64,000 nt of DNA from Stegostoma tigrinum (Eukaryota). Position numbers and translations under genes: made by a program. Below are positions 3,573-52,325 of this stretch, one piece after another. Within the stretch, counting starts at the first letter, position 1; each line of letters opens with the position of its first letter. The DNA lies in assembly GCF_030684315.1 (NCBI RefSeq), contig NC_081387.1, positions 20,146,678 to 20,210,677 of the forward strand. Reading direction: 5' to 3'. A model generated the notes under the pieces. That model searched no databases and had not been told where the DNA came from. It saw nothing but the letters and a program-made list of their open reading frames with translations.

Positions 3573-3754
3573 CTGATTAAATTAGATTATTATACCTGAA
3601 GCAAGTAATGTCAGTGTTACAAAGTTGAGCAATGCACGGAGATATTGAGGAGGGACCGTATGAACCACGTGTTAAACCTTATACAGGTATTTCTGCCATA
3701 AAGCGTGTTTCATTAACGCGAATTGACCGTAAAGCGATTGATGAGCAGTGGATT

Positions 3755-3883
3755 TCTGAAGAAGTGCTCAAACCCGAAACGTCAGCTTTTCTGCTCCTCT
3801 GATGCTAGTTGCCCTGCTGCGTCCATCTAGCTCTACACTTTGTTATCTCAGATTCTCCTGCAGCGGCAGTTCCTACTATCTCT
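3755..3883. mobile_element. Penelope-derived terminal fragment
   Basis: ctgaagaag...cccgaaacgtcagc...gttcctactatc, same family. Confidence 0.75.
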
Positions 3884-4399
3884 GTTGAATAGTGGGCGCT
3901 CCTTGGATAACACGAACTTTCTACTGGACGGTAAAAGCGATTTGCTGCAGCGGTTATCCACAGCGCGACATCACCCAAGAACGTAGCCATCGCGTTATAC
4001 GAGAAATACGTGTTGCAACAGAACCAGCAGAGTATCATACGTCCTTTGATTGAGCTGGTTTGAGTTTTGTGGCGTGGGTAAAGAAAAAAAAATGAAGCTG
4101 CGCTGGGTTCAGATTTACTGGGTCAGGACGTTGTGTCTTGGCGAGAAGTGGAAGTTTGAAGATTGAAAATTTGGTCGCGATAAAACATGCTCTACAGGAA
4201 TTTGCAAAAACGTCTTTCACAGCACCACATGAAGCTACACCTCTCTACCTCCAGTCGGTAGAAACTCTGTACCGCCATCTCCAAACTTATCGCCAAGCTT
4301 ATACTTGAAAAGTGAAATTCTAGGTGTCATAAAATCAAAAAAGAGCGCAAGCGCTCTAAATGCAGGCCCGTAGTTTAGAAACACAATGGAAAAATAAGC

Positions 4400-6577: not shown

Positions 6578-6870
6578 GCACGGGAGCTTGTTGGTTAGCA
6601 CTACTACCACACAAGGCCATGGGCCTGGGTTCGATTCCACCCTCGGATAACTCTTTCTACGGAGTTTACATGTTCTCCCTGTGTCTACATGGGTTTCTTA
6701 TGGGTGCTGTGGCTTCCTCTCACAGTTGAAAGATGTGCAGGTTAGATGGATCGGCAATGGTGATTGCAGGGATATGGTAGGAAGTGGGCCTGGGTGGGAT
6801 GTTTTTCGGAGGGTTGGTGTGGACTCGATTGGATCAATGTCCTGATTCCACGCTGTAGGGATTCTATTGT
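6578..6870 (+). mobile_element. HE1-type tRNA SINE
   Basis: ggttagcact...gggttcgattcc head, V-SINE core ggagtttacatgttctccctgtg, tail ctgtagggattcta. Confidence 0.8.
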
Positions 6871-7052
6871 ACATGAATATACTATCGTACATGCACACCG
6901 ACACAAGGGTTACAGCAAAAAACGCGAGTACAAATGTACTTGAACAAAAGCATCTACAAGTGTGTTAATTCTTATTTTGTTTTAACTAAGCAGTTATAAC
7001 AATTAACGTAGAGAATATTTACATCAAGTAGAGAATATTTACATTCACATAC

Positions 7053-7998: not shown

Positions 7999-8118
7999 CT
8001 GAAACAGGATTTAAAATAAACATGTCAAAATCCTATTTCGAAGATATTGAGGAGAAACTTTATTTAATGTTTTGATAAATAGCGTGATTGTAAAACTATA
8101 TCAATTGCATTTCTCTGG

Positions 8119-8277
8119 TATAACAAGGTGTGATGCTGGATGAACACAGCAGGCCAAGCGGCATCTCAGGAGCAGGAAAGCTGACCTTACGGGCCTCGTC
8201 AGCTTTCCTGCTCCTAAGATGCTGCTTGGCCAGCTTATCTCTGATTCTCCAGCATCTGCAGTTCCTATTATCTCTGA
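8119..8277. mobile_element. Penelope-derived hairpin with target-site duplication
   Basis: Inverted arms; flanked by atatcaattgcatttYtct on both sides. Confidence 0.8.
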
Positions 8278-8596
8278 TATCAATTGCATTTTTCTAGTGG
8301 CTTTCACAGTTTCAGGGTATTGTAAAGTGCTTTGCAACCAACAAACTAGTTTTGAAGTACAGCCACTTCTGGAATCCAGTAAACATGACAGCCAAACTGA
8401 GCTTAGGAAGACCACACAAACAGCAGTGTGATATTGATGGGTGAATTAGGCTTCTTCGTGATTTTGCTGACGTTGTATGATGCTGGAGACACATTGCGCA
8501 AACACAGAGGCCACATCCCTTGTAATTCCTCGAAATAAGGTCACAGAAACATTTGCAGTCACTTGAGAGGAGAGGCAGGGATTTAAATATCATGGA

Positions 8597-8730
8597 TTTG
8601 AGCAACGCTGAGTAACGTTTGTTGCCTATCCCTAATTGGATAGCTAAGCATCAATCACATCGCTATGGATCTGGAGTGAAATTTAAGCCAGACCAGAGAA
8701 TATCGCAAACTTCTTCCTTTAAAGGCCCCC
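8597..8730 (-). mobile_element. Deu/SacSINE1-type SINE fragment
   Basis: Family-B LINE tail (ttgcctatccctaattg) joined to the SINE body. Confidence 0.55.
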
Positions 8731-8756: not shown

Positions 8757-9059
8757 CATAGAATCCCTACAGTGTGGAAGTAGGCCATTTGGCTCATCAA
8801 GTTAACATTGCCTGCTCCTAAATGCATTCTGCCCAGACCCAAATCCTTAACCTATCCCTGTAATCCTGCATTTCCTATAGCCAAGCCATCCAGCCTACAC
8901 AACGCTGGACACTGCAGGGCAATTTAGCATGGCCAAGCCATCTAATTGCACATCTTTGGACTGCGAGGGAAACCCAGATCACCTGGAGAAAACCCACGCA
9001 GAACTGTGGAGCACGTGTTATGAGGCTGCACTAGTAACTACTGAGCCACTGTGCCGCCG
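8757..9059 (-). mobile_element. HE1-type tRNA SINE
   Basis: Reverse-complement match to 50943-51250. Confidence 0.8.
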
Positions 9060-9635: not shown

Positions 9636-10033
9636 CTGGTAGAAAGAAAAGATTATTGGTTATAGTTTTATTCATATATTTGTATCTATGTATAGATTAA
9701 ACAAACGGGAGGCGCTAGCAATTTAAAATGCATTACACGCCTGCCGAAAGTGCATGGGAACTTCACTATATCAGATAGGGTCTGAACCACGAAGCGAGCT
9801 GAAAGTTTTATTGTGCTACTCCTTTTCACTGCTTTGTGATCTGAACCAAGAGTTCAAACCCTAAAATGCAATTGCTGAAGCAATGTCAAGATCCCCTATC
9901 GCTCAACATTTTACTTTTTCATTATTAATTGCTTTGTCTTGATGTGGGGCAACATTGAGCCTTCGTTGCTGGGGCTTCCTTACACTTAAATAAATTGCAG
10001 CAACTTTGCAAAGCGGGGCAGAAGTGAAGAGAG

Positions 10034-10201
10034 ATAGTAGGAACTGCAGATGCTGGAGAATCTGAGATAACAAGGTGTAGAGCTGGATGAACACAGCAGG
10101 CCAAGCAGCAACAGAGGAGCAGGGAAGCTTGAAAATTTTCTGAAGAAGGGTCCCGACCCCAAACGTCAAGCTTTCCTGCTCCTCTGTTGCTGCTTGGTCA
10201 A
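10034..10201. mobile_element. Penelope-derived hairpin with target-site duplication
   Basis: Inverted arms; aagtgaagagag on both flanks. Confidence 0.8.
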
Positions 10202-12046: not shown

Positions 12047-13478
12047 GCTCTCTCAGTTTGTCAGGAGGTGGCTGATATACCGATTTAGATGGTGAGAGAG
12101 GTACGTAACATTAATAGTTCTCAAAGCGCGAATGGAATTATTTGCTGTCTCCACGTAGATGACACAGGATATGCGATTTGTGGCTGCAACTGAGATCTCT
12201 TCACCTTTAAAACGGCCCTGGCTTAGAGTTTTGAAATTGTCAATAAATATCTTGATGACAGCGTTTGATAAGTAGGGAACGCAGACCGTGAAACAAAGCG
12301 ACGACCCACATGACATGAGATCTGGGCCCGAAACGTCAGTTTTTGTGCTCTTGAGATGCTGCTTGGCCTGCCGTGTTCATCCAGCTCCACACTTTGTTAC
12401 CCACATGACATGTATGTGTGATCTTATATTTAGGTGGTGGAGAGTCCCTGCCCCGCGCATTTCTCCATGACGATGGACTTTAAGATGCGCAAAGGGGAGG
12501 AAGGAAACTATCGGTTCTGTTACAGCGGGGTCAAAAATTTTCATTCACCTAATCGTGGTTCTGTGATTCCAGCCATAATGTAACTCAGGCAACTAAGGTC
12601 CCCGGGTATGCTGGCCAAGTGGATTAGCCACGGTAGATACAATTTACAGGGTTAGGGTGAGCGCTGAGCCTGGGTGGGATACACTTTAGAGGATCGGTGC
12701 AGACTCGATGGGCCGGATGGCCCTTATCTGCACTGCAGGGGCACTGTGGTTCCGCAATGCTTACAGTTACTGATGTCGTCAACATTTAGCCAACATCCCA
12801 GTTCCGGTGTGGAGTTTGCAGGTCTTTGACATCTGCTCTCATTGAGCTCGTCGTATGACAAGTCGGTGTTCGTGATCCTTCATCAGGTGGTTGTGAAATC
12901 ACCCCCACCACGCCCAACCTCAAGCAAGCCTAAGCGGAACAAGCAAGGCTGATACTATTCTGTTGAAGGCGCTGCCTTTCAGGAGAAGCTTCGAATAGTG
13001 GATTGGTATTGTGTTCGGATTGACTGCCCGGCGGTAAAGGTGCTTTCCGAGGTCGTGAGAGACGTTGTAGAACCCTTTGCGTTTGCTCTAAACGTCCGGT
13101 CACTTCGCTTGAAACGAAAAACTTCAGGGAATCATGTTGCTTGTTGAGGTGTGTTACGACTGAATCCAGATTCTATGCTGGTTATGCTCACAGTCTCCGA
13201 GATCAATATAAATGGCGTTTATCTGCGTGCAGAACCATCCACATAGCCCAATCATTTATATTAGCTATTACCCGCAGAGTTAACTTCTGCTAGTTATGTT
13301 GATGGAGCATAAAGATCTCACTTGCAGGTTTAATTTTTAACAGAAAGAGTTCAAAAGTCTTTTTGTGTGTAATCGAAACAAAACAGTGAAAACGAGACTA
13401 ACTATAGATTTTCAGGAATAAAGTTCAGAGTGCATTTGAAAGGTTTAAAATATAAAATGAATATTTTGTTCACTAGTT

Positions 13479-15712: not shown

Positions 15713-15857
15713 TTCTTTGGAAAGCAATTAAGAAAATGCATCATAACCTGACTTAGTGATTCTGATTACGCTTCCTTGACAACTTGATGGGAAAGCATAG
15801 GCAAAGTTAACAATTGTCTGTTTGCTGAACATACTTAAAAGAACTTGGTGGTTGAAG

Positions 15858-16125
15858 AGACGATGGACTAGTAGTAATGTCACTTGACCTGTAAATCAGT
15901 GTAGTCCTCCAGGTGGTCCCACAGCAGTTGCAGTAAAAGACATTGAACATGGAATATATTGCTAGAGTCAATGATGGTACAATCAATTGTAAGTCAGAAA
16001 CTTACCTGGTTCTCCGGTACCTTAAGGAAGGCCATTTATCTCAAATGTGACTCATAACTGACAATTAGTTTAAGGGCACTTAGGAACAGGTAAATGCTGA
16101 CCTTGTCAAGCTATGTTCACTTCTT
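15858..16125 (+). mobile_element. Deu/SacSINE1-type SINE (head + tail)
   Basis: gatggactagtagta head, decayed body, aagggcacttagg...taaatgctg tail. Confidence 0.55.
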
Positions 16126-16365: not shown

Positions 16366-19300
16366 AAAATAGAACATAGAACAGTACAGCACAGGAACAG
16401 GTCCTTCGGCCCTCCAAGCCTGTGCTGACCATATTGCTATTCGACTCATAGGGTCATAGAGCATGGAAATAGACACTTTGGTTCAACATGTCCATGCTGA
16501 CCAGATATCGTAAATAAATCCAGTCCCATTTGCCAGAATTTGGCCCATATCTCTCTAAACCCTTCCTATTCATATACTCATCCATATGCTTTTTAAATTT
16601 TATAATTGTACCAGCTTCCAACAGATCCTCTGGCAGCACATTCCATGCATGCACCACCCTCTGTGTGAAAAAGACGTCCCTGAGGTCCCTTTAAAATCTT
16701 TTCCTGCTAAACTAATCCTATCAGCTTGCACGTGGCCTGTGTCCCTTTATTCACTTGTTTGTTTAAATTCACACGTACTACCCTCTTGTAAAGAAAATAC
16801 TTTCCTAACACATCTTTAAACTTTCTCCCTCTCACCTTAAACCAATGACCCTAGTATATGACAGTGGGAAAAAGACTTCGACTATCCACTCTATCCATAC
16901 CTCTCCTTATTTAATATACTTGTCTTAGGACTGCCCTCAACTTCTGATGCTCTAGTGAAAAACTCCAATTTTGTCCAACCTTTCTTTATAACTAATACAC
17001 TACAATCCACTCAACATTCTGTTAAAATTCTTGCACCCTCTCCAAAGCCTCAACATCCTTCCTATAGTGCGGCAATCAGAACTGTGCCGACTACACCAAA
17101 TCAGCATGACCAAAGTTGTATACAGATGCAACGTAATTTACCAAAGTTTATACTCAATGGTCCGACCAATGAAGGCAAGAATGCTTCAGACATAGTAGGA
17201 ACTAGGCCCGAAACATCAGCTTTCTCTGATGCTGCTTGACCTGCTGTGTTCATCCAGCTCTACACCTTATTTTATCTTATTTAAGGCAAGAATGCTGTTT
17301 ACTTTCTTTATCACCGTATCCACTTGTGATGCCACCTTCAAGCAGCTATGTTCTTGGACCACAAGATCCGTCTGTATGTCAATGCATGTAAGGTCCCCGC
17401 TCACTGTAACTTTTCCACTTGCATTTGACCTCCCAAAAAGCTTCAATCACACTTGTCGAGATTAAATCCTATCTGCCGTTTATCTATCCAACTTTTCAGT
17501 GGATCTATTTTCTTCCAAATTCATTGCTATCCTTTGTCACTCTCCACAACTCTACCCATTTTTATGTAATCTCTAAGCTTACTAATCAGAATAAGGGCAA
17601 TTTCATTCAAATCATTTACATATACTGCAACACCAGAAATCTGTGCATTGATCTTGTGGAACACCACTGACCACAGAACATCAGTCAGAAAAACACCCAT
17701 CGACAATTACCTTCTGCCTTTTGTGATGAAGCCAATTTTGTACTGAGCATGCAAATGCACCATACAATTGATGCAAATTGACCTTTTGGATTAACCTAAC
17801 ATCAGGGACCTTGACAAGTGCTTTATAAAGTCCATGTTGACAACATCCACTGCCTTACCCTCATCAATCAATCAGTCTATTCTTTTCCAACTGCAAGTCA
17901 ATCCTGTACCTCAGCATTTTCGCTAATAATTTCCCCACCAATGACATAAAGCTCACAGACAAATAATTTCCTGGTGTATCCCCGTTATCCACCCTCAATG
18001 AAGGAGCATATTGGCTTTTGTCCAATCTTTTTGGGCCTCCCTTGTTGCTAAAGAGGATGCAAAGGTCTTTGTGAAGACCTGAGCAATCTCCATTTGTGCC
18101 TCCTTTGGTATGCCATCAGATCCTACAGACTAATCTATCTTAATGTTTTTTTCAAGACATAGCTCTTTTTTCTGCTTAATGTTAGCATGTCTTAGAGTAT
18201 CAACAAACCCCTCTCTAAACTTACCTTCATCCATATCCTTCACCTTGGTGAATACCAATGAAAAATATTCATTAAAGATCTCACCCACTTCCTCTGACTC
18301 GACACAAAAATTCTCTGTCTTGTCATTGGATGAACATACCCTTTCCCTAATTACTCTCTTGCTCCCAAAATACATATAAAATGCCTTCAGATTCTCATCA
18401 ATCCTACCACCTAAGGACATATCATCCCTTCTCTATCCCTCCCAATTTCATTTTTAAAGTTCTTTTCTATTTCTTTTATAGCCCTTCTGTTTCCTAAACC
18501 CATGTCTCCTTTTACTTTCAACTAAACTTATAAAATTTCTCATCATCCACTGCTCCTGAATCTTGCCACCCTTATTTTTCATCTTCACAGGAGCATGTTG
18601 GTTCTGAACACTGGTCAAATGTCAGATGTGGATTTACCTTCAAACGCCTGGTCCCAATCCCATTTTTCCAGTTCCTGCCAAATAGTTTTGTAATTAGAAT
18701 TCCCCAATTAAGCACTTCCATCCAAAGACTAGTCTTATTTTTTCCCATAATGGTCTCAAAATTTACAGAATTATGATCACTTTTCCCAAAATGCTGCCCC
18801 GGCTGGAACTTCAAACACCTGGGTAAGATAACCCTATATTACAAGGACTGATATGTCCTTTCCCTAATTTTATTATCTCCATTTTGTTTCAAGAATCCAT
18901 TCTGGATTCCCCCAACAAATTCAACCCTATCTCAGCTACTGGCACAGTGGGAGTGCCAGTGAATATTTGGGAAAATAAAATCACTCACTAAACCAATCTT
19001 GTTTTTACATCTTTACATGATTTACTGACATATCTGTTCATTTACTTCCCGCTGGCTGTTAGGAGGCCTAATATCAACCCGTTAGAGAGATGGCAGTCTT
19101 CTTATCACTAAGTTCTACCCATTGCATCATTGGATAAGCCGTCCAAAATGTACTGTCAATGCCGCTGTGCCATTCTCCTTAATCAGCAAAGCATTTCTCC
19201 ATGCCTCTTGCACGCCTCTCTAGCACGCCTGAAACATCTAAATCCTGAAATGTTGAGCTGCGAGCCCTGCCCTTCTCTCAACTAACTTTCAATAATGGCT
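16366..19300 (-). mobile_element. Stack of CR1 3' ends plus a long decayed CR1, with a Penelope fragment at ~17190-17275
   Basis: catagaac/tcatagag tails; ORF remnants NLKAFYMY...NEYFSLVFT and GKSDHNSVNF. Confidence 0.8.
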
Positions 19301-20029
19301 ACAGCAAAGATCAGATGCATAAAGAATGAAACAATATCCTCATGGTATGAAATTACAACAGATCTGCATTCATTGGGTAGGCAATATTAATGGGATTTTA
19401 AAAGCATAGCCAAATGCGCGTTTTCCGTAGAAAAGTACTATTATGTTTTGGATTTTTTTTAAAAAGGTATAGCCAATGTGAGACATGTTTTTGCTTGATG
19501 AAACTAGGGAATGGAGCAGTTAAAGAAAGTAGTGTCAAGTCTTTTTTATGAGATCAAAAACTGATTTGAAAATAATTAGTTACATTCATGGTGCAGTCAG
19601 GTTTTGTTATTGAATATTTCCAAATAGCAAGATATCATAACTGGAAAAAATGTATATGTGATCCTAAAATAAAACAAGCACTGCAGATACTGGAGATCTC
19701 AAGCTCACACAAAACGATTGTTGGAAACTCAGCATGTCTGGCAGCACCTGTGAGAGAGAACAATGTTACCGTTTCAAGTCCATTGGCTTGAAGAGTCCAG
19801 ATGTTGCATGATCTGCTGATTTTCTCCTGATTTTTCCATTTTTGTGTATTTTTTATCTGACCCATTGATTTAACAAAGTTGCTTCAGGAATGGATTTTGG
19901 TAAGTGTTACAATTAAGTGTTGAAATTCTGAATGGACTCTTGCTCTGGGACATTTTATTTTCAATCAAAGCAGCCAATACGTTATTGGTTAAATTTCAGA
20001 TTTCAGGAACTTGGCCTTTTTAAAAATTC

Positions 20030-20715
20030 ATTCAGGGAATGTGGACTTAACTGGTTGGGTCAGCATTTATTGCCAATCCCTGGTTGCTCTGGGAAGATGG
20101 TGATCAGTTGCTTTCTTGCGTCTCTGAAGTTGATTTGGTGTTAGTACATCATCAATACTGTTAGATTAGGAATTCCAAGAATTCTATCCAGTGTAACTGA
20201 ACAAAGGCAAGTAGATTTGAGTGGCCGAGATAACAAAGTGTGGAGCTGGATGAACACAGTAGGCCAAGCAGCATCTCAGGCTTCTTGCATGTTCTGGTGT
20301 TTCATGTTCTCCTGGGTACTAATGATCATGGGTCTCAAAGATGCTGTCTAGGCATCTTTAGTGGATTTCGGCAGTGCATCTTATTGATGGTGCACATTAT
20401 TGCAACTGGACTGTGGTTGTAGGGGGAGTGAACGTTTATGGTTACGAGACCAATCTAGCTAGTTGCTTTGGCCTATATGATAGCAAGATACCTGCCAAGC
20501 TCCTTGAACGTTTTTGGAGCTGCTCTCATTGAAACAAATAGGAAGCATTACATTATATTCATGTCTTATAACTTGAAGATGGTCGGTAGGCTTTGGGAAA
20601 TCAAGAGATGACTTATTACAATGCAGGGTTCCTAGCTTCTGACCTGGTCCTGTAGCCACAATATCTGCATGGGTCAGCTTGGTTTATGGACAATGGTAAT
20701 CCAGAGAATGTTGTT
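20030..20715 (-). mobile_element. Family-B LINE 3' fragment, interrupted by a Penelope fragment
   Basis: Matches 21945-22600. Confidence 0.7.
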
Positions 20716-21944
20716 TCCTAAAATATCTTCTTATGTTGTCAGGTTAAGTTTTGGAATTGGGCTTGTTCCTGGAGAGAAACTCCGATGAACACAAAAGAAC
20801 ATCTTGCTGAATGGAATAGATCAATAGGATTCTAGAGTATAGTTGTCAAGAAGATACGCCTCCAGGAAAGGTGCTACAAAAATGATCCCTTTCTCCATTA
20901 AAATTTCTCAAATTCCAGGGAGGCAAGATGAATAGATTAACTTTCCTCGATAATTAATGTTAATATCTGGGTGCACACTCGTTATTTGCCTCTGCACTAG
21001 TATTTCTCTTACAGCTAGGCAATTACAACTCCATATAGGATTGCAGACACCATGGCTTGAGTTCTATATGCTCACATATGTTTTCATTACACTTCATTAT
21101 ACATTAATATAACGGAATATTTGCCATTTTCCCTGTAGGAGTCAACAATATTATCATGCGCACAGAGTCACATACAGGCCATACCGTGCAGATTTCATTC
21201 CCTAAGGTACTTTACAACTTTAGAGAACCAGTCGATACTGATTTGACCTGGTTGGGACAAGAACTGGCGACATGATGTAAACATTTGTTTTTACACAGAT
21301 CGTGGTTATTTCGTGGAATACGATGCATATAAGTGTGGGAGAGGCAGTTTTTAAAAGTGGGATAGACGAGTAACTGAATGCAGATCTACTGGGAAAAACG
21401 GATTGTTTGAATTTTTCTTACAGAGAATTGTCACGGACATGATGGGTTGAACTGTCTCGTTATGTGCTCTAACCATTCTAAGATTTTATAACTTACGTTA
21501 GTGAACAACATGGCTCACGAGATAACAGGATAATCTTATTACCACCACAAATTTTTAAAACTTTTAAAATCAAATCTAAATGAATATTCCTTTGGTAGAA
21601 CAGAATTTTGAATATTAAAGGAAAACAAAATTTTAAAAAAGCAAATTTTCCAACAACACTGAGCATAGGTGCAAGGGTTATTCACCTAGGAGTCTAGATC
21701 ATAATCGAAGGACACAGCTGCCGTATTACCCAGGTTTGGTACTATTGAGGCAACTCTGTCATCTCTTTCCCCGTGGTCAATGAGGATTAAGGTTGCTATC
21801 TTTGTTGCACCACTTTTCGTTATTGTGTTAGCACTCATACTTCAGCATATTGCAAATTTTAATTTATAAAGAAACTACTCTTGAAGTCTCGTTGATGTAG
21901 CCACCTACAATACATAGACTAAGCGCTTTTGATCCGTTCATAAC

Positions 21945-24900
21945 TTTTTTTACGCATTTGTTGGACGTTGACATTGCTGGCTGGCCAGCATTTGTTGCCC
22001 GTCCCTAGTTACCCTTGAGAAGTTAGTGTCAAGGTGCCTTCTTGAACTGCTGCAGACCATCTGTCCCATTAGTGATATACCATTAGGGAGCGAGTTCCAG
22101 GATTTCGACACAGCAGCTGTGAAGGAACAGTGATATATTTCCAAGTCAGAATCGTGAGTGGGTTGGAGTGGACCTTAATGGTGGTGGTTCTCCCATATAT
22201 TAGCTTCGCTTGTTCTTTTAGTTGGAAGTGATAATCGTTCTGGCAAGTGTTCTCTGAGGATCTTTGGTGAATTTCTGCAGTGCACCTTGTAACTATTACA
22301 CAGTCCAGCTACTCAGTATTGGTCATGGAGGGAGTGGATGCTTGTGGATGTAGTGCCAAACAAGTGGGCTTTGTCCTGGATGGTGTCAAGCTTTTTCAGT
22401 GTTGTTGGGGCAGCAATGATCCAGGCAAGTGGGGAGTATTTCATCATATACCTGATTAATGCCATGTAGACGGTAGACAGGCTTTGGGCAGTCAGGAGGT
22501 AAGTTACTTGCCGCAGTATTCTGACTTGCTCAGAGAGCCATTGTGTTTATCTGGTGAGTCTAGTTGACTTTTTAGTCAATGATAACTCCCAGGATGTTGA
22601 TAGTGAAGGAGTCAATGAAGGTAACATCAGTGAATATCCAGGGGTGGTGGTTAGATTGTCACTTTTTGGTGATGGTCTTAGTCTGGCATTTGAATGGTGC
22701 GAACGTTACTTACCACTTGTCAGCCCAAGCCTGGACATTGTCCTAATATCGTTGCATCAGTACGCCCTGCTTGAGTATCTGAGGAGTTGTAAATCGTGCT
22801 GAACATTGAGCAATCATCGTTGAACATCCCCACTTCTGATCTTATGATGGAGGGAAGCAGTTGATGAAGCAGTTGAAGAAGGACACAACCTTGAGCAACT
22901 CATGCAGAGATGTCTTGGAATTGAGATAACTGACCTCCAACAACCGTCTTCCTGTGTGTCAGGTATGACACCAAACATCAGACAGCTTGCCCTGCGATAC
23001 CCATTGACCTCAGTTTTGCTCGTGGTCCTTGGTGCCACATTCAGTTGAATGCAGCCTTGATGTCAAGGGCTGTTCCTCTCATTTCACCTCTGGAGTTCAG
23101 CTCTTTTGTTCATGTTTGAACCAAGGTTGTAATGACGTCAGGAGCTGAGTAGCCCTGGCAGAACCAAACTGGGCGTCACTGAGCAGATTATTGCTAGACA
23201 GGTGCTGCTTGATATCACTAATGGTGGCACCGTCCATTACTTTAGTGATGATTGTGAGTTGACTGTTCTGGCGGTAATTGGCCGAGTTGGATTTATCATG
23301 CTTTTCATGCACAGACCATACCTGGACAAACTTCCACACTGTCGGGTAGATGCTGTGTTGTGACTGAACTGGAACACCTTCGCTGTGGGAGCAGCAGGTT
23401 TTGGAGCACATATCCTCAGTACGATTGCTGGAATATTGCCAGGGCCAATAGCCTTTGTAGTGTACACTGTCTCCAACTATTTCTTTTTATCACGTAGAGT
23501 GAATTGAATTGACTGAAGACTAGTATCTGTAATGCTTCAGCCACCGGAGGAGGCAGAAATGGATCATTCACTCAGCTGAAGATTACTGTGAAAGTTGCAG
23601 ATTTATATTTTACTCTGGTGTACTAGGCTCTTCTATCATTGAGAATGAGGATATTTGTGGAGCCTCCTCCTCTGCCAGTGAGTTATTCAGTTATCTACTA
23701 CCATTCAGGACTAGATGTTGCAAGACTACAGAGCTTAGATCTGATCCGATGGCTATGTGATTGCTTACCTCTGTCTATCACTTGCTGCTTATGCTGTTTG
23801 GCATGTAAGCAGTCCTGTTTGGCGGCTTCAAAAGGTTGGCATGTCATCTTCAGGTAAGTCTGGTGTTGCTCCTGGCATGCCATCCTAGATGCACCATTGG
23901 TCCAGAGTTGATCTGGCTTTATGGTTATGGCTGAGTTGAGAATATGCCAGGCTATGAGGTTACAGATTGTGCTGGAGTAGAGCTCTGTTGCCATTGAAGG
24001 CCCACTGTGCCTCATCGAGACCCAATCTTGAGTTGATAGATCTGTTCGAACTCCGTCCCACTTAACACATAGATAGTGCCACACAATACGATTGAGGTTA
24101 TTATCAGTGTGAAGGTGGAAATTTGTCTCTACAGGTCTGTGCACTGGTTACTCCTTTCAATGCTGTGATGGACAGATGCACTTGCAGCTGGTAGATTTGT
24201 ACGGACTAGGTCAAGTACGTTTTCCATCTTGTTGGTTCCCTCACCCCCTGTCACAGGCACAGTCTAAGCAATGTCCTTCAGAACCCGACCAACTCAACCA
24301 GTGGTACTGCTGCTGAGTCACTGTTGGTGGCGAGCACTGAAATACCCCCACCCAGAGTACATTTTGTGCCCTTTCCATCCTCAGTGATTCCTCCAAGTGT
24401 TGTTCAACATAGAGGAGTGCCGATTCATCAGCTGAAGGAGAACAGGACGTGTTGATCAGCAGGTGGTTTCCTTGACCATGTTTAAAGCAAAGCTACAGAC
24501 TTCATGGGGTCTGGAGTCGATGTTGAAGACTTCCAGGGCAACTCTTTCTCGACTGTATATGGAGACGAATGCTGGGTTTGTCCAGCGGGTGGGACAGGGT
24601 GTCTCCAGTGATGGTGATTGTGGTATTTGGGATATCGTCTATAGCGTACAATACCGTGAGTATGACTCTGTTAGGTTGTTGCTGGACTAATCTGTGAGAC
24701 AGCTCTCCCAATTTTGGCACTAACCCCCACATGTTAGTATGGAGGACTATGTAGAGTCGACAGGGCTGTTTCTACCGTTGTGTTTTCCACTGCCAGGTGA
24801 TCTTCCCGGTTTCACTTCTTTGAGACTTTGTAACGATTGGTACAACTGAATCATTTCAGAGGACAATGCAGAGTGAACTATATTGCCGTTGAGCTGAAGT

Positions 24901-25155
24901 CACATGTAGCCCAGACGAAGTGAGGATGGCAGATTTCCTTCCCTGAAGGATATTAGTGAATCAGACGGGTTTTCCCCCACCCCCCACCGACCATCGCAAT
25001 TCGTTTCAAGGTCATCAGTATGTTCTTAAATCCAGATTTTTCAAGTTGAATTCAAATTCGACTATCTGCCGTGGCGAGATTCGAACGCACATCCCTAGAA
25101 TATTAGTTGAGTTTCTGGATTAATAGTCTGGTGATGCTACCACTCGGCCATCTCG
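21945..25155 (-). mobile_element. Near full-length family-B LINE (CR1/L2 group) with tRNA-type 5' head, decayed APE+RT, no ORF1
   Basis: A box TGGCCGAGTGG 25150-25140 and B box GTTCGAATC 25086-25078. APE start (WGLVPKLGELSHRL) at 24732. RT remnants KAIGPGNIP, ANYR, LLSDAQFG. A-rich 3' end at 21945. Confidence 0.85.
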
Positions 25156-28100
25156 GCTTGTACGCTTTTCGTAACTTTATCGTCAACATGCAACTGAAAA
25201 GATCAGTCACAATTTGCCAGCACTGGTGAATTAAAGGCCACAAGAGGGCGCTGCTGCACGTGACATTGATGCTCTAAACCCTTGGAACAAAAGTGATTTA
25301 TTTTGCCCTGCCCTTCTTGAGGTGGTTCACCAGCCACACCTCTGTTTTTGCGCACTTTATTCCTTTTGTACCCATTGTTCCTCTACGAATTCCAATTCTT
25401 TCCACTAGGGTTAGGAATCAGCGATGTTGGTCCATGGAATTGCAATTACAATCAAAGACTAGCGGCATCCCAGTCAGAAGCAAGCAAAGATTGTAGAGCA
25501 AGTAAAGATGGTTATGGTTATGAATATGGTGTCATGGTTTGCTTTCAAGGGAGACAGAAGTTTAACGGTCAAAAATGATCTGGCTGTTGTGGGATTTTGA
25601 GCCTTGACCAATCAGTGCGATATGTTTGTTCTTTCACCATCCACATGCATCCTGAATTGAATGTGAGAATGCGAATGTAGATGTAATTAATTCTTTCTGA
25701 GAATACGCAATTAGATCTGCAGTAAAGGAGCATTTACGTTAACTCATATCGTCCTTTTAGAGTCAATGTGTGCGTTGTTGTTTTATGGTGCCTGTTCTCA
25801 AATCACATTGCATTTTATTTGCAGTGGGTTGCTCAATGGAAAGCATGGAGAGCGGGTCAGCTAATATCTATCCATTGGGTCAAATGCAATATGTTCACAA
25901 AATACAAATGATCCAGAAGTTTGTGAAAGAAGACAACCAAGAGGGAGCATGAAAGCTAACATAAGAACGGCAGAAGTAGGACCAGGAACAGGGTATTAAA
26001 CAGCGCCACCCCGTCACCACCCCCCCACCCAAGCCTGACCCACCATTTAACAAGGGCATAGCTGATCTGCCACAGGTCTCAAATCATCTTTTGTGCAGTT
26101 TGTCATAGCTATCATGATCATCACATCTATCTACTTCCTCTTTAAGCTCATAATCTATTACATGGTAGTAGTGGTCCAATCAAGTCTGCACGCGTCTTCA
26201 CTGTTGAATGGAAATGCTACTGCCGTGTAGTTCTCCATTTGACACGTTCTTTGGTTCACAGCCACAAGCATTGTACGCGCGGTGCGTCATGGTGGTTAGA
26301 TTGTTTCGTGCCTGTCTGTGCTTACATGAAACCAATCTGTTCAAGCTGCCACTGCTTGAGCATATTAGCTGTTTTCAAACCAAAGTTATTATTTATGGTA
26401 CTGCTCGCGACGTCTGCAAAGTATGCACATAATAGTATGCATTCGCTGAACCCACTTAATGGGAGGAAGATACCGAACAGTGTGAACTTAACTTTACTGT
26501 TATAGATCCAATCGCACTTCGTGTTCAGTTCTCCAAATCTAGAAATCTAAAGTTTGGTCTTGCAGGCGTCAAATTTAGTGGCCCGACGCGGGTCATCTTG
26601 AGAAGCGGTGTCAGACTTTCTATAACAGAGAGGGTTGGCAGGACGCACTAATTCGCTAGCATATGCCAGAATCTAGCTGCGGGCCACGACCAAGTTTCAG
26701 TACAGATAGAATTGTCTATTTCCTCTCCTGAGGGCACTAGGAAACCAGTTGTATCTTTACAACAGTTTCATAGACACTTTCGCCAATATTAGCCTTTTGC
26801 TTACAATTCCTCACATGCATAATTTACTTCGGCAGTGACGACAATACAGGATTTTAGATTACTAGTCCAGTAAGGTAATTATATCATAACTGTGGGCCCG
26901 TTAACATGATCTGAACTAATGTTATTTTCATAGGCAACTGGAAACGTTAATGGTTTAAGTAGGGCTCTCCCGGGCTGGAGCCTACGCAAGGTTAGCGCAC
27001 GCTGTGCACAGTAGTGCACGTCCTGTCAGTGCACACGCTACGTAGCTATTTGGCGCTGCATGCAAATCGAGTATTTGAATGGTTTCCCGGCTGTTTATTA
27101 ACTGCACTAATTGTGCACACGCTTGTTTTTGTCAACTTGGAGGCAATTGCCGTGCCACAGCTTGGTCAGACTTTCGCTATGAAAACAAACACTCGTGTGA
27201 CATTTTCAAGAAAACGAGACAGATAGGTAAACACAATTGCAAAGTCGCTATTCTTACACAGCCGCCACAAATTTTCGCACGTTATACTTCATCGAGTCCA
27301 TAGTTGTTGTTATATTAGTTTTTCGGTTGACAGTCTTGGAATGCAATTGTGTCGGGTCTAAATACAACTCAGATTGCTTCTGAAGTGAAACCAGGTGTGA
27401 ATCACACTGTTTTCCAGATTGGTGAATTCACAAGCCAGTGACGGGTCGGCGACTGAGGCACTTCATCTGAAATGAGCCGTAAATCATGGAGGAATGGATT
27501 TATTCATAGGCTCAGCCAAGTTGACAGCGGCTGAAGGAAACGCAAATGTAGAACTTCTGGAGTACTTGGAGACATGATCAAAGAACAGCATTAGATAGAG
27601 CGTTAAAACCTCAGAGCCTGTGTCCCAGACACCCGCTGACAGGTAAAGCTCACGATAAAATGACGGAACATCGGCAGAATAACCGGACTGAAAGTGAGGA
27701 GTTATTGGCAACTGGAGATTTCATGTAATCCGGTTACGATTCAGAAAAAGCGAGAGCTCCATTTCAACTTGTTACTCAGCTCTAGACTGGCGGAGAGGCC
27801 GTGAGAGACGCAGCATTCGATTTTATGGAAAATATCGCTGCAATTGAAGGATGCAACGGAGCAGGCTGGTGTTTTATTTTCTGAATTATTCGCCACTTTG
27901 AGCACTTCTTTTGCATCCGAGCAAATGCAAGCACACTTCAATCAATTTACCAATGATAACATCAGATCCCACCCGTGTTGTTAGGAAGCCATTACTCCTT
28001 TTACCTAATTGTAAAATATACTGAAGTATTCGCGCTGCGATATCAGCGACGAACTCACCACACGTGTAAATCATGTTTCTCAACGGGATCCCCTTCTAGC

Positions 28101-28433
28101 TATGCGCGATATAATTGCCGTTGTTACATAATTGCCAGCGGATTTGAATGACTAGACGAGATGAATACATTGATAAAATGTCGGTACTGTTTTATTTCAG
28201 CATTTTTAGCCAAATTGCGGAAGCCTTTCGGCGCATGGAAGGCGATTCGGCCCATCGTACTCGAACTGGCTCTTCAAACAAACATCGTTATCTACACCCA
28301 ATATTTGGCCTTCTTCTCCACACCCTTGTATTTTTCTTTTATCGAAATGATCGGTTCATGCCTTCTTGAATACCTCAAATGAACCTGGCTCCATTATGCT
28401 TTCAGGTTGCAAAGTCGATCCTGTAACTACTTT

Positions 28434-29210
28434 TTCTGAAGAAGGGCTTAGGCCCGAAACGTCAGCTTTCCTGCTCCTCTGCTGCTGCTTGGCCTGCTGT
28501 GTTCACCCAGCTCTGCACCTTGTTAACTCACTGTAACTACTCACTTCTTTTTCTCTTCTTACCCTGGTGCTTTTGCAAATTGCTTTACCGGCGTCGTCCT
28601 GTCCTTGATCTTTTTACAATCAAGAACAATTCCTCACCATCTACTCTATTCAGGCTGCGCCCAAATTTGAAAGCCTTTGTCAGATCTTCTGTTAGTTTCT
28701 TCTCGCCAAGAGCAGCAGTACCAAGCTACCTACGTAACTGAAGCGTGAAGGAACCAGTATATAAGTTGCTCCTGCTCTCTCTCCAATGCGTTCACATTGT
28801 TCCAAAAACGAGGCACACAGAACTGCACACAAAACTCCTGCTGAGGTCTAGCTAATATCTTATGTAAGTTCAATGCCACATCTGGCTCTTGTATTTTATT
28901 GCTCTGTTAATAAAGTCGAGGATATTTTGACTTTACTGAGTATTCTTTTCACCTCTCCTGACATCTCAATGATCTGCGTACCTATACACCCAAGTTCCAA
29001 CGCTCCTGCAACCCGTTTCGAATTCCACCCTTTATGTTATAATGTATTTCAACATTCTTCCTATGTAAATACTCCATTTCACATTTTGCTCCACCGAAAC
29101 CCAATAATACCAATTGCCCTCTCCACCACCTGGCTATGTTCTTTTGGAGTTTTATACAGTCCTTTTCACAGATTCCATTTCTTGCAAGTGTTGTGTCATT
29201 TGAAATTGTC
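28434..29210. mobile_element. Penelope fragment (28434-28530) and decayed CR1 (28740-29210, minus)
   Basis: Similarity to other copies in the window. Confidence 0.6.
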
Positions 29211-29269
29211 TTCTGCATACCAAGATCTGGATCATTCACATCAATGAGGAAGATGCACGTGCAGAATTA

Positions 29270-29592
29270 ATCAAAGATAGCACTTTCCAAACTCATGACC
29301 ACTTCCATCCAGAGGGACAAGGGCAACAGATATATGGCAGCATGACCACCATCAAAATCCCATTCAAGCCACTCACCATCTTGATTTGGAAATATATCGC
29401 TGTCCCTTCACTGTTGCTGAGTCAAAATCCTGGAATTCCTTCCCTTATGGTATTGTGGGTCAACCCACATCAGGTGGACTGCTGCAGTTCAAGAAAGCAG
29501 CTCGGCGTCACCTTCTCAATGGCAGCTAGCGATGGCAAATAAAAACTGGCCAGCGAGCGATGCCAACTTCCGACAAATGAATTTTAAAAAAA
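29270..29592 (+). mobile_element. Family-B LINE 3' fragment
   Basis: Reverse complement of 21945-22260. Confidence 0.8.
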
Positions 29593-29907: not shown

Positions 29908-30028
29908 CTTCAGAACCGTCTCCCCATCCCCCTCTCTGATGAAGGGTCTAGGCCCAAAACGTCAGCTTTTGTGCTCCTAAGATGCTGCTTGGCCTGCTGT
30001 GTTCATCCAGCTCCACACTTTGTTATCT
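29908..30028. mobile_element. Penelope-derived terminal fragment
   Basis: ctgatgaagggtctaggccc motif; flanks taagtaagat. Confidence 0.8.
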
Positions 30029-30234
30029 AAGTAAGATGACTTTGCTCTCTTTTAACTTTCTGACGAAGAAATCAATATATAAGAATGAAGAAACCTGCGG
30101 AGATAACCAGAATCAAGTACTGATTATAAAAAAAAATCGCACACTTGTTTGACGACTCAAGATTGCAACAGAGAATAAATCCAGAGAAGTGTTATTTTTC
30201 TGTCATTTATGCTTTAATGAATGCCTGCAATTTC

Positions 30235-31350
30235 AATATAGCATTTGCTGATCATCCATAACTGTCATTGAGACGGTGGTGGTGAGCCCTTCCTTGAAAT
30301 ACTGTAGTCAGTTATGATATTGTTTTGCTTACAGTAATGCTGGGGAGAGGGTTCCAGGATTTTGTCACAGTGGTAGTGAAGAAACAGTGACATAATTCTA
30401 AACCAGTGTGATACATCTTAGAGAGAAACTTGTATGGTGGTTGTGGTGGTGTTCACAAGGATATACTGTTTTTGTCCTTCAAGATATTGATCACAGATTT
30501 GCAATGTACCATCAAAGGAGCCTTGGTGAGGAACTGCAGTGAAAGTTCCAAAGGGACGTGCTGCCACTATCCATCAGTGATGGAAAGACTGAATATTGAA
30601 GATGGTGCCTTGGATGTCAACCGCGTGGGTTGTTTTTTCCTGGTGGTTCTGAGCTTCTTGAATATTGTTGGAGCAGCACTGGTCCAGGGAATTGGATAGT
30701 ATAACATTAGACAACTGAACTGTGTCATGTAGATGGTGGACTGATTTCTGAGGAGTCAATATTTGAGTTAATTACCTCTTTTATTCCTTGTCTAGTCATG
30801 GAGTGTAGCGTTGATGCCAGTTATTACTAATCCCTAACTGATCTTTGGAGTGCATGACCTGTTGATGAAACTATAGTATTTCCATAGAGTCATAGAGTCA
30901 CAGAGATGTATATCACAGAAATAGACCCTTTGGCCCGAGTCGTTCATTCTGAAGTTCATTCAAAATCCTTTCTGAATCCTTTCAAACTTCACAAAATCCT
31001 TCATATAGCAGGGAGACCTGAATATCACGCAGTATTTCAAAAGTAGTCTAACCAATGTCCTGCACAACGACAACATGACCTCCAAACACCTATACTCAGT
31101 ACACTTTCCAATAAAGGCAGGCATATCATATGTCTTCTTCACTATACTGTCTACCGGGCACTCCACTTTCAAGGAACTATGAAGCTGCCCTCCAAGAACT
31201 CTTTGTTCAGCAGAACTCACCAGGATATTACCATTACCAGTCCCGCAAACTTACTAATCATACCTCCTCTGTCCACATCCAAGTCATTTATATAAATAAT
31301 GAAAAACAGTAGACCCAGCACAGTTCCTTGTGGGACACTGCTGGTCACCG
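30235..31350 (-). mobile_element. Family-B LINE fragment (30235-30800) and CR1 fragment (30885-31350)
   Basis: ORF remnant EVMLSLCRTLVRLLLKYC; (catagagt)n tail. Confidence 0.7.
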
Positions 31351-35269: not shown

Positions 35270-35600
35270 AGTGGTTAGCACTACTGTCGCAGAACTCCAG
35301 GGACCCATGATCGATTCCACTCTCGGCCGACGGTCTGCGTAAAATTTACACGTTCTCTTCGTGTCTACGTGCGTTTCTTCCGGGTGTTCCAGTTTCTTCC
35401 ATAGATGGGCAGGCCAGGTGGATTGGCCATGCTAAGTTGTCCATAGTGTCCAGGAACGTACATGCTAAGAGGGTTAGCCATGGGAAATGCAGCGTTACAG
35501 GGATAAGGAAATGTGGATGAGCTTGTTGGGATGCTGTTCGGAGGGTTGGTGACAAGCTTTGAGCCGAACGGCCTGCGTCCACACTATAGGGATTCTATGA
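35270..35600 (+). mobile_element. HE1-type SINE
   Basis: gtggttagcact head; tail tatagggattctatg. Confidence 0.75.
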
Positions 35601-37122
35601 TGTCTACTCCAATGTAAAATTTGACTGTGGGGCGGGGGGAGGGGTCGGGGGCGATGTGTTGGTCTCTAACTTTGCTTCGATTTGGAGTAGGTGAACCCAC
35701 AATGCCGTTCGGGAGAGAATTCAAACATTTTACCCAAGCGACACTGAAGGAGTAGCAATATGTTTGCAAGTCAGGATGGTGAGTGACTTGGAGGGGAACT
35801 TGCAGGCGATGGTGTTTCATTCCCTTTTATCCCTCCATTGGCAGTGGGTCGTGGAACATGTTGTTTAGGGAGTTCTGCTGAATTTCTGCGATGCCTTTCT
35901 AAATATGGTACCTACTATTGCTGCTGCGTTAAGAGATGACGTGGTTAAGACGCATGAATCTGGAGATATGTTTATAAGTAGTTGAGTTTTGAGAGGTGGT
36001 TGCACAACTAGAGGCCAAATCACAGCGAAGACTTTTGCTGTGAAGCCACAGCAGGCAGTTGTTACTACTTTAAATACTATACTTCTGGTTCATGTCCTCT
36101 GGTTGAAATACATTGCTGTTTTTTACATAAAGTTAAACCGTCTCCTTCGTGATTTATTCCTTTATCGTATATTCTTTCCCTTTGACCTCGAGAAATCAAA
36201 TACCCTTTCCATGAGTAGAATATATGTATTGACAACTGTACTAATTATCGTGAACTACAATTTCTTGGCATGATTACATCAGCTTTAGTGTGACTATGAT
36301 ATGACATTACAATCTTTAAAAAATCTGAATTACGCATGTGTCTTGTGCACTTATTCCAAAACAGTGGATTGTTTGAGTAATGTTGTCAGCTCTCCGACGA
36401 ATGTTGCTCTCTTATACCAAGGAATTTGCAGATACTTGACTTAGGTTTCCAATATGAATGCGTGGAAGTCTTAATAACTTGCATGACTTCCATTTTGACA
36501 ATTGCCTTCTAGCTCATTTGGCTCTTTCAGTGAAGTTGCAACTGGCTGAAACATCCACGTACTCTACTGACAAAAACGAAAGCTTTATCAAATTCAACTT
36601 ACAGTATAGACCATTCATTGGCACATGTAATAATTTACCAATGATTTGGACAGTTCAGCTGGAATTATATCAATAGTATTGTGAGTGGAGGTGCTTGTGA
36701 ATATCCAGTCAAAGTATTGTCATCGGTAGTTAGCAGAGGTATGAGAGTTAGGCATGCTGATACAACTGGCTATCTTTTCAAAATATAAAGCAATGGTTAC
36801 GGTTATGTGTTAGTACAATTCTTGCACGTATCTATTTTTGTGCATGTTTCTCTGTGCGTGTGTGGTCTCTGGATCGTTAAATGATGCTTATCTGGATTAG
36901 TAGAAATACTCACGACCTCTTCAGAGAAAGCTTAAGTTTTGAAATGTCAATCACTGCTAAGATTAGAAATAGAGTGACAACTGGTGTAACTTAACTGTCT
37001 TATTCCTGGAATATACCATGACTTAAAGAGAATTATAACTCATTGTGCATACAACAAATGGTGTGACTGATCGAATCTTCTACATTCGGCTGTGCTTTCA
37101 TAATGACATAAATTGTACCGAA

Positions 37123-37349
37123 GATAATAAAATGTGAGGCTGGATGAACACAGCAGGCCCAGCAGCATCTCAGGAGCACAAAAGCTGACATTTCGGGCCT
37201 AGACCCTTCATCAGAGAGCTCTCTGATGAAGGGTCTAGGCCCGAAACGTCAGCTTTTGTGCCCCTGAGATGCTGCTGGGCCTGCTGTGTTCATCCAGCCT
37301 CACATTTTATTATCTTGGATTCTCCAGCATCTGCAGTTCCCATTATCAC
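37123..37349. mobile_element. Young Penelope-derived palindrome with 14-bp target-site duplication
   Basis: ~190-bp near-perfect inverted repeat centred on gagagctctc; taaattgtaccgaa at 37109-37122 and 37350-37363. Confidence 0.9.
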
Positions 37350-39888
37350 TAAATTGTACCGAACATTTGTTTGTTCAACCTGTAATAGCAACGTTTTATT
37401 ATTTGCCCATGGAGTGCAGCAAGACTTCATCAGAATGATTTCTAAGGAGACAGGATTGTTGCACAAGCAGAGACAGGACCGACGAGGCCTGCAGTCATAT
37501 CACTTGAATGAGACGAGGAATACATTGTGCTGCTTAAAATTCTGGCAGAGCGAGACTGATTGGATGCTAGGCTAAAGTTTCTCCTGCCTGCGTCATCCAA
37601 ATGAAAGTGATAAGGTTTCATGATATGGGACAGACCATTTACAACTGAGATGAGGAGGGTAGTGATTGATATAATGCTTTACCACACAAGGCCACTGAGA
37701 CTAAATCACTGAACATATTTGAGAAAGCAATAGATACGTTTCTAGTGTTTAGTGGAGTCAAACGTTATTGAGAGAGCTTGCAGGTATGTCTCTGAGATAC
37801 AGAATCACCTTATATTCATATTGAATGGTGGAGAAGGATTGATGGGCCGAATAGGCTATTCCAGTTTCATGTTTCAACCCTTCCATATTAGCAGGTGGGA
37901 AAGAATGAGTACATGTTATTATGTATTCAGCTTCTTGGCAATTCAAAGAAATCTGCAGTGCCGGTCATGCCTTGATGTAGAAGCAGTTGCAGGTTGTAGA
38001 AAATGCCAATCTTTGCCTCTTTGACTGAAGTTAAATTAGTGTTATTTTCGCCAGGCTTTCTTTAGTTTTTAATTGGCACAGTTAGAGGAGAAAAACACAC
38101 AACGGATGAAAATATTCTTAAAATGTATGATTCCAAATTGCTAATTTTGCAGTTTTGACATTAATGTGTGCTGAATCACTTAGCAGACCAATTGTAGTCT
38201 CTCAGAATGGGAAGGTCTATGTTAATCTCTTCCGGCTTTAGTTCAGCAAAGAAAAAAACAGTTCGGAGACATTAGTTGATTTAATTACCTTTAATATTTA
38301 GAGTCAATAAATTCTCCCGTGCTATGATGGTGAAGTTTGCCCTTAATTCACACATAGTATATCATTTTTGAAAACCAGTATATTTTAGGAAGTTTTGAGT
38401 TGGGAGATTAGTATTGAAATCCCACTGTTAGGTCCATACCACATGGTGCTTGATTTGCAGTGATTTTTCCGTTCGCACTTTCATTCCATTACGACTAATA
38501 TACTTTGTTGAGAGTAGTAAATAAAGTCGGAACTTAAAGGGAAAATGTAGCAAATCAAAGGGAATGGAAGAAAGCTCCTGCAATGAGGGAAGAGTTGGTG
38601 GGAGGCATTTTAACTCATGACAGTTTATGGATGTATACAGATACTGGGCCTATGGTTTAAAGCTGTTCACAATTGGGGTACTCCTTGTCTCATATCAAAG
38701 ACTGACGTACATTAATGGATAGACATAGATAGCAGTGATTCGTCAAAACTGCCTGATTATTGTCACATGAAACGAGCAGAATTGCAGAAGGTGGATTAGA
38801 GAGGCCTTTTGTCCAATAAATCCAAAGTTCTCACGCGTTCCCGTGCCCTGATAACTCACTGAAATGACACTTGGTAATTTCAATATGCTGTGAACCCCAT
38901 CAGCATCAGTCGTAGCTTTCTTGAATTCTCCAATGAAACTGAGAACAGGCTAGATGTTGAACCAAAGTTTCGGTGAAATCAAGTGAAATACTGCAGGTGC
39001 TGGAAATCAGAAATACAAACAGGAAATGTCGTTCTGACAGCACATAGAGAGAAGGAAAAACTTAGTTAATATTTAATGTGTACAGTTGAAAGTGAAAATT
39101 CTGAAGAAGAATAAAATCCGACTCCAAATATTAAGTTTCTTTCCCTTTGCCTGGATGCTATCAAATTTGTTGACTTTCTCCCTTATCCATGTTCTGCCTT
39201 TATTAAATCAGATTCTTCGTGCTCCACTACAGGTTCACTGGGAATTTCATAGATAGGTGCTAAGAAAGCCTATTGTGAGTTCCTTGCTAATATTCCAACA
39301 TGAATTCTAGGCCACGAAGACTACGGTCATTCACAGCTGTAGACAGATGTACAATATGCGTTGCTATCTTTCTAGGAGACAATCTTTTCATCGGTATCGA
39401 GTTCAGTGTTGGAGTTTTGCAGGTACATTGAAGTTAGGTTCAGGAATATGTCGTTCAATCTTCCGAGAATACTCCATCATTTCATGATATCCTGATTGGT
39501 CTCACAGTGATCTCAGCTCCACTGTGTGGCCTGTTCCCGATAGCCTTTGACTGCTTTGCCCATCAAAATCTTTTCAACTCAACCTTGGATAAATTTAAAG
39601 ATACAACGCCCACTACTTCCTGGGAAGGGAATTCCAAAGATGACGAACATCTGAGACAAAGAGAGAATATTACCCTCATCTTTGCCTTCTGTAAGGAAAC
39701 TTTAGTTTTTAATCTATGCCCCCCAGTTCTAGCGTGTACTACAGGAGGAAATGTTACTTTAGCCATTGATTAATCTATTTTCCTTTTCTTTGTCCCGAGG
39801 TCTACATTAGTCGTCAGAAGTGACCGAGTTAGATTCTATTCCCAGAAATTGGTGCCTAATGTGCAAATATATAATACTGGGTGCAATA

Positions 39889-47100: not shown

Positions 47101-47267
47101 GTACAACCTCAGAGACTTTTAATGAATTCAAAAGAATGTACCTCCATTCTCAGGCAGTGCCTTCCAGTACTTGGCAACTGGCTTCGTGAACACATTTTCT
47201 TTCGTATTGCTTTAGCTCATTTTTTCCAATGATTGTATTTTGTTTTTTTTTCCGTCAAATTTAAGCA

Positions 47268-52082: not shown

Positions 52083-52325
52083 CATGGAGCTGGATGAACA
52101 CAGTAGGCCAAGTAGCATCTTAGGAGCAGGAAAGCTGACGTTTCTGGCCTAGACCCTTCATCACCTGACGTTTCGGTCCTAGACGCTGCATCATTTTCTG
52201 ATGAAGAGTCTAGGCCCAAAACGCCAACTTTCCTGATCCTAAGATGCTGCTTGGCCTTTTGTGTTCATCTAGCTCCACACCTTGTTAACGCAGACTCTCC
52301 AGCATCTGCAGTTCCTACTATCTCT
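52083..52325. mobile_element. Penelope-derived hairpin
   Basis: Inverted arms; flanks tctcctagttt. Confidence 0.8.

Follow-up and report, generated by a model that had tools for sequence, protein, structure and literature searches.

Does the minus-strand repeat at positions 21945-25155 of the window (the whole 64,000-nucleotide stretch of Stegostoma tigrinum DNA analysed here) belong to a single retrotransposon that joins a SINE-type head to a LINE frame, or were a SINE and a truncated LINE brought together by chance? The order described in the initial annotation, in which A and B boxes and a SINE body lead into an APE-RT remnant and a LINE tail, was found again when the window was re-read. 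The repeat is a full-length, decayed copy of a 3.3-kb LINE, approximately 82% identical to the family majority, which can be aligned to window positions 25154-21943. From its 5' end, and all on the minus strand, the copy consists of a tRNA-like head (25070-25155, with the A box at 25150-25140 and the B box at 25086-25078), a body or 5' UTR that is common to two SINE families and is not a Deu domain (24844-25069), the lead of the main frame (24748-24843), which encodes a basic peptide, has no in-frame AUG and overlaps the last part of an upstream frame of 27 codons, an APE endonuclease remnant (approximately 24140-24747; recognised by motifs and, on natural pieces of sister copies, by Pfam PF14529), a reverse transcriptase (RT) remnant (approximately 22560-23460; motifs, and Pfam PF00078 on a sister copy) and a 3' tail common to the LINE and the SINEs (21945-22017), which comprises the last three codons, the stop codon at 22007-22005, a predicted stem-loop and a short A-run. 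The join of the older SINE family lies at 24844 and that of the younger family approximately 30 nt earlier, where the window copy has a small deletion; the first APE motif, at 24747, lies 97 nt beyond the divergence of the SINE form. A candidate 11-nt target-site duplication (10/11) was seen around the window copy at 21937-21947 and 25168-25178.

The description of the head as tRNA-derived held as far as the A and B boxes, on which this label is based. It did not hold for recognition by software: ARAGORN found 0 tRNAs in the 64-kb window, Rfam gave five weak chance matches in six loci, neither called the head a tRNA, and a cloverleaf fold was not obtained for the LINE head.

Searches for the family were carried out in the 3.2-Gb genome (835 contigs). 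A 401-nt query across the junction returned 3738 first-look candidates, of which 40 were scored; the match crossed the junction in 40/40, and the 39 non-self candidates, at 75-78% identity, were spread over many contigs. Exact 24-mer matches to the junction numbered 161, and those to a second junction variant 150, versus 0 for reversed controls, from which we infer a few thousand junction-bearing copies in the genome. The second variant retains the identical join in copies down to approximately 73% identity on the ORF side, and the head-to-ORF layout is therefore long-lived. Homology began within 3 nt of window position 25151 in 16 of 29 other loci, with the head interrupted by an insertion in 2 more, and conservation collapsed upstream of the head. 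Within the upstream 600 nt of the 18 loci (out of 30) that have an intact head, nothing was found in common, apart from an unrelated second repeat, at a distance of 250-400 nt, in a single pair. Both ends of the element were spanned by 8/20 loci extended to 4.7 kb.

The family was also resampled free of the junction, by searching only with an endonuclease motif of 20 nt, which has 574 exact matches, and taking the first 30 of these. Homology reached the head in 14/30 of these loci, reached the body in 7/30 and stopped earlier in 9/30; the nine had no common upstream sequence, and no alternative 5' end common to several loci was found among the 30. No common sequence was thus seen upstream of the head or standing in for it, and neither of the two outcomes that would have refuted the initial annotation, loci with shared flanks or a consensus reaching further 5' into an ORF1, was observed. 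The copies are dispersed, with a fixed 3' end bearing an A-rich tail and with 5' truncation, as expected of a LINE. Target-site duplications were not consistent, a score of at least 8 being obtained in 3/21 copies versus 2.6% of mismatched pairs.

The layout extends to other species. Contigs of four other organisms covered 30/30 bins of the element's first kilobase, and the junction was bridged by at least one contig among the matches listed and by three whale-shark gene models (P0012, P0015 and P0124), in which body sequence stands directly before the endonuclease. Named protein matches came from Rhincodon, Heterodontus, Scyliorhinus and Heptranchias. As a separate observation, the public shark gene models P0003, P0004 and P0182 (including an SLC6 transporter and a cystathionine beta-synthase-like protein) contain pieces of the LINE frame; these pieces are exonised copies or else artefacts of annotation.

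Chance nesting of a SINE before a truncated LINE, or segmental duplication of one such arrangement, has nothing in its favour beyond the abundance of both repeats, and it is set against the exact junction matches and their empty reversed controls, the unrelated flanks and the presence of the same junction in whale-shark gene models. Genome-wide matches with unrelated flanks mark these as independent loci, and one junction recurs on many contigs, in agreement with the initial annotation, which had judged a chance nested insertion unlikely. Nesting and segmental duplication were rejected on the unrelated flanks and keep a negligible probability; it is practically certain that the element represents a family of tRNA-like-headed, ORF1-less APE-RT LINEs.

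Further members of the family are present in the window. The head-to-APE junction was said to recur at 685-880, and a second junction does lie there, on the plus strand, within an older LINE copy (550-1273) in which an internal deletion separates the junction from an RT piece; the head profile matches 550-747 (E 4.8e-15), element positions 60-546 match 582-929 (E 2.9e-13) and the RT piece spans 946-1273. When window positions 690-935, within this old copy, were used as a query, the DNA search returned short pieces only. A 5'-truncated LINE copy with a tail lies at 45888-47100 (plus strand), and other LINE fragments at 20019-20714, 29249-29592, 30240-30789, 41164-41514, 42014-42351, 42882-43248 and 56110-56951. 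Three short elements had been read as the same head and body joined to the same tail. This was borne out strongly for that near 47268, a SINE of the older join type (47237-47568, minus strand, E 5e-32), and weakly for that near 15858, a very decayed SINE of the older type (15830-16108, plus strand, E 1.4e-6); the one near 8597 is a remnant of body end and tail with the head missing (8594-8726, minus strand, E 1.4e-14). A further SINE remnant lies across the older join at 58356-58497 (plus strand).

Other repeats were noted alongside these. A decayed SINE of SacSINE1/Deu type (8284-8582, minus strand; E 1e-9 versus L241, a SacSINE1-type copy of the same genome) adjoins the 8594-8726 remnant. 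A very abundant repeat of 80-230 nt, often present as inverted pairs, was found at 2263-2387, 3753-3886, 8114-8275, 10029-10197, 12319-12399, 17199-17279, 20225-20280, 28432-28530, 29909-30032, 37121-37350, 43634-43905, 52079-52326 and 55717-55984. The same repeat splits the LINE head at approximately the same place in loci L016, L019, L021 and L022, and this recurrent interruption may reflect a landing preference. Another SINE-like family of approximately 300 nt, which may be V-SINE HE1, lies at 6578-6871, 8930-9017, 35270-35429 and 50948-51243.

The family majority, built from 21 copies, is 3.30 kb long and holds a single APE-RT frame of 977 codons, preceded by the A/B-box head and a body of approximately 230 nt and followed by a 3' end of approximately 65 nt. 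The lone stop in this frame is a CpG-decay site (TGA in 7 copies, CGA in 3, CAA in 2, other or gap in 9), and Pfam PF14529 (APE) and PF00078 (RT) were matched by natural pieces of family copies. An intact copy was not found, the longest natural stop-free stretch being 243 codons in a sampling that favoured window-like copies. There is no ORF1: the sequence ahead of the frame consists of 320 nt of head and body, and a hidden ORF1 was rejected on the lack of any common upstream sequence in the 30 APE-anchored loci. In its RT the element is 46-47% identical to P0009, P0010, P0033 and P0056 (single-ORF proteins of 812-1195 aa) and 33% identical to a CR1-type LINE of the same genome; a protein word search with one APE piece gave no match at 1e-10. 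A missing ORF1 is not in itself unusual: the contigs that carry the element's nearest RT relatives are likewise scarcely larger than a single ORF, and RTE, Vingi and eel UnaL2 are LINEs that have no ORF1. In an L1/Alu assay, Pol III transcripts were described as needing no ORF1p (PMC2666806).

The T-run scan proposed in the initial annotation was run on the sense strand of the family majority. It contains 5 runs of three or more T and no run of four or more, an absence that alone is not significant (P 0.11-0.12 under codon-preserving nulls). Runs of at least four and at least three in the same majority number 13 and 49 for A, 11 and 47 for C, and 8 and 37 for G. The signal of depletion sits in TTT, which is shorter than the classical vertebrate terminator: 5 TTT runs were observed versus 22.7 expected (minimum 12 over 1000 shuffles), no other trinucleotide of the majority is as depleted as TTT (O/E 0.30), and with the protein and the first two codon letters held 4 TTT were observed versus 19.4 expected (minimum 7 of 2000). 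Interrupted T-runs are also low, and at 2 of the 5 TTT sites some copies read TTCG/TTCA, which makes CpG decay of TTCG their likely source.

One CR1-type LINE (L067:1-2928, plus strand; family L051-L075) served as a control from the same genome. It contains 45 TTT and 12 TTTT runs in 2.9 kb, and its Phe codons (TTT/TTC) stand at 31/10 versus 2/15 in the headed LINE. The control family, which may be HER1, is young, with 97-99% identity between copies, 6693 candidates and a 976-codon open frame. Among 80 metagenome relatives TTT O/E ranged from 0.55 to 1.6, and TTTT runs were present in 79/80 (26 in the closest, L076). The single relative with no TTTT run (L083:99-2435; 5.4 expected) has normal TTT counts and too little upstream DNA for a head check, and its TTTT absence is probably chance. 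A head/body profile run against the 80 relatives found no head (best E 0.65); these relatives are at most approximately 45% identical in RT and consequently say little on close non-shark relatives.

Oligo-T terminates Pol III, and the loss of T-runs therefore points to selection for Pol III read-through. An A box and a B box close to its 5' end, together with the lack of an internal T4 terminator, give the element the sequence features of a Pol III transcription unit with a type 2 promoter. On these sequence features, we consider it likely that the full-length LINE RNA is made by Pol III. LINEs are described as Pol II-transcribed, and Pol III processivity is held by Kojima 2024 to limit element length to approximately 1 kilobase (both PMC10886601). 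In keeping with that description, the LINE RNA could be made by Pol II, from the body or by read-through, the tRNA-like part being a relic or a 5' processing signal and the T-runs being lost through avoidance of splice acceptors or of a U-rich sensor. A capped RNA would ease translation, and RTE, Ingi and R2 are known to carry self-cleaving signals at the 5' end (PMC5786205). However, the A and B boxes are kept in both the old and the young majorities, the head has no cloverleaf fold, and TTTT runs are kept by the CR1-type LINE of the same genome and by all but one of the metagenome relatives; a head that is not a working promoter is accordingly judged quite improbable.

Transcription by Pol III bears on translation. 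Pol III RNA is uncapped, and the majority frame, of 977 codons, has its first in-frame Met at codon 171. By eye, the N-termini of P0009 and P0018 are similar to the basic lead peptide, and reading of the main frame therefore probably begins ahead of the APE motif. The 27-codon upstream frame (majority nt ~270-355; window ~24890-24815) starts in the body and runs to an AAA-TGA that lies within the main-frame lead. It overlaps the start of the main frame in the majorities of both subfamilies, and a third frame of 35 codons begins at the overlapping ATG. This overlap is a candidate translation signal. Alternatively, Pol III might make the template RNA while the protein comes from elsewhere, for instance from capped Pol II read-through of some copies, and the element would then not be self-sufficient from one transcript. 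Such an arrangement accounts jointly for the TTT loss and the missing AUG, but a read-through RNA would equally lack an in-frame AUG, and the frame has been kept open in the master lineage, with copies at ~73% to 94% identity, which is easiest with translation in cis. We regard a separate source of protein as unlikely, and translation from the Pol III transcript is retained here as the preferred reading.

Identity of the element with SacSINE1, and of its body with the Deu domain, was considered. This identity was overturned by printed sequences (SacSINE1 nt 2-78 and Deu, in the supplement of PMC5786205) and by L241: the Deu motif is absent from the 64-kb window at 3 mismatches and has one exact match in the genome, L241, whose head by eye matches the printed SacSINE1 head, which the LINE head does not. 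A comparison of L241 with the LINE element gave no meaningful match. The comparison with SacSINE1 suggested in the initial annotation thus led to a different element, unlike in head, body and tail. The repeat is an APE-type LINE, and it works like a stringent APE-RT LINE with a SINE-type promoter. When the consensus lines for Meta and UCON3 printed in the supplement of PMC7245038 were compared by eye, the body did not resemble them either, and four short motifs were unmatched.

Short forms of approximately 370-400 nt, with A and B boxes, no coding capacity, a LINE-derived tail and many copies, have the properties of tRNA-derived SINEs (SINE2). The majority of each SINE family consists of the 5' part of the LINE joined to its last 70-75 nt, from the final codons onward. 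The old SINE majority (20 copies) matches the LINE 5' part at 247/301 positions and the LINE 3' end at 64/74, and the young SINE majority (15 copies) matches the LINE 5' part at 263/287 and has the shorter linker of the young LINE in common with it. Exact matches in the genome numbered 64 for the old join and 4926 for the young join, approximately 30 nt further 5'. When LINE copies were scored against the two SINE profiles, leaving out 2 copies that scored too low and 9 with less than 120 nt aligned, the old-SINE profile fitted as well or better in 4/6 of the oldest scorable copies versus 0/43 younger ones, so that the pairing of old and young SINEs with LINEs rests on 6 copies; over all 49 copies the rank correlation of LINE age with SINE profile was nil (rho 0.015). 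Simulated decay of the young head reproduced the old-profile pattern in 1-10%. Each SINE thus tends to fit the LINE copies that are of similar age, which suggests repeated deletion from the contemporary LINE.

Both SINE families would then derive from the LINE by internal deletion, a descent that the sequences make quite probable. It is also the first of two readings offered in the initial annotation, which had the SINE as an internal-deletion derivative of a tRNA-headed LINE, and it is favoured here by the LINE 5' and 3' ends of the SINEs and by the age pairing. The reverse order would have the LINE acquire its 5' modules, head and body, from a pre-existing SINE through template switching, with the SINEs as an independent lineage that exchanges sequence with the LINE. 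It draws on the old-join SINE copies, whose decay equals that of the oldest LINE copies seen (50-83% identity to their own majority, in the body), on the headless state of L076, the nearest non-shark RT relative with DNA, and on the well-documented exchange of modules among SINEs (PMC5499810, PMC7245038). It requires the switch to land exactly at the body/tail border of the old SINE; the young SINE lacks 29 nt kept by the LINE, yet has the young LINE as its best match; no copy was seen with the same body and a different tail; and the body is not Deu and bears no resemblance to Meta or UCON3 by eye or in four short motifs. We hold SINE-first descent to be rather unlikely, and it would reverse the line of descent while leaving the Pol III reading untouched.

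Descent of the SINEs by deletion recalls, and departs from, several known systems. The element resembles the U6/L1 chimeras in having a Pol III RNA joined 5' of LINE sequence; those are reportedly independent, one-off insertions with variable joins, in contrast to the single join of the shark LINE, amplified over a long time. The shark and coelacanth Deu-SINEs SacSINE1 and LmeSINE1 (partner LINE L2-2_CM or 'CR1-4_DR-like') likewise combine a tRNA-headed SINE with a tail common to an APE-RT LINE, but for that pair only the tail is reported as common to SINE and LINE (PMC5499810, PMC3747384). Similar in plan are the bipartite non-autonomous LINEs of RTE, Vingi, Ingi and R2, and the SINEs built on them (Kojima 2018, PMC5786205), in which the short form also consists of the 5' and 3' parts of an ORF1-less LINE. 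There the LINE is of Pol II type and a small-RNA head was added after the deletion, whereas the shark LINE itself already bears the head, so that deletion alone yields a SINE. A retroelement with a Pol III promoter derived from a small RNA is also found in TRIMp3 (Cassandra, Helenus and Ajax), which, unlike the shark LINE, are non-coding, of LTR type and at most 1.3 kb long (PMC10886601). One published LINE, whose name was found in a single paper of the literature searched, is similar in carrying a tRNA-like sequence; the text consulted on it gives neither the position nor the role of that sequence and claims nothing about T-runs or a promoter. In the full-text literature no account was found of a shark LINE with a tRNA head and depleted T-runs, and Repbase, Dfam and subscription journals, which lay outside this search, may hold a consensus under another name.

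The preferred reading, that of a Pol III-transcribed LINE giving rise to its own SINEs, can be set out as a mechanism. A tRNA or tRNA-derived head would have been fused to an ORF1-less LINE in an ancestor, and TFIIIC and Pol III would then produce a 3.3-kb RNA from the internal promoter, with full-length RNA arising only from masters free of oligo-T terminators. To make the APE-RT protein, ribosomes would start internally at a non-AUG codon, or would arrive from the short upstream frame through a +1 shift or re-initiation; of all the steps of the mechanism, translating an RNA that has neither a cap nor an in-frame AUG is the least supported. The protein would bind the 3' stem-loop and copy the RNA by target-primed reverse transcription, and deletions that keep promoter and tail would yield ready-made SINEs, as may have happened at least twice. 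Taken as a whole, a Pol III-transcribed, single-ORF LINE with SINEs formed by internal deletion is a reasonably probable account. The fuller proposition, by which an autonomous coding retrotransposon uses a terminator-free 3.3-kb Pol III RNA, is translated without cap or AUG and repeatedly spawns SINEs, LINE and SINEs forming one lineage across shark evolution, is one towards which we lean only slightly.

In the standard division, LINEs are transcribed by Pol II and SINEs by Pol III (PMC10886601). If the account given here is true, a 3.3-kb coding element stripped of T-runs and headed by A and B boxes breaks both this division and the limit of about a kilobase on Pol III elements, and it provides a natural case in which to test how translation of an uncapped Pol III RNA can take place. 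The birth of a SINE would be a single step, deletion of the middle of a LINE, which phylogeny can test, and the depletion of TTT on the sense strand would serve as a simple screen for similar LINEs in repeat libraries.
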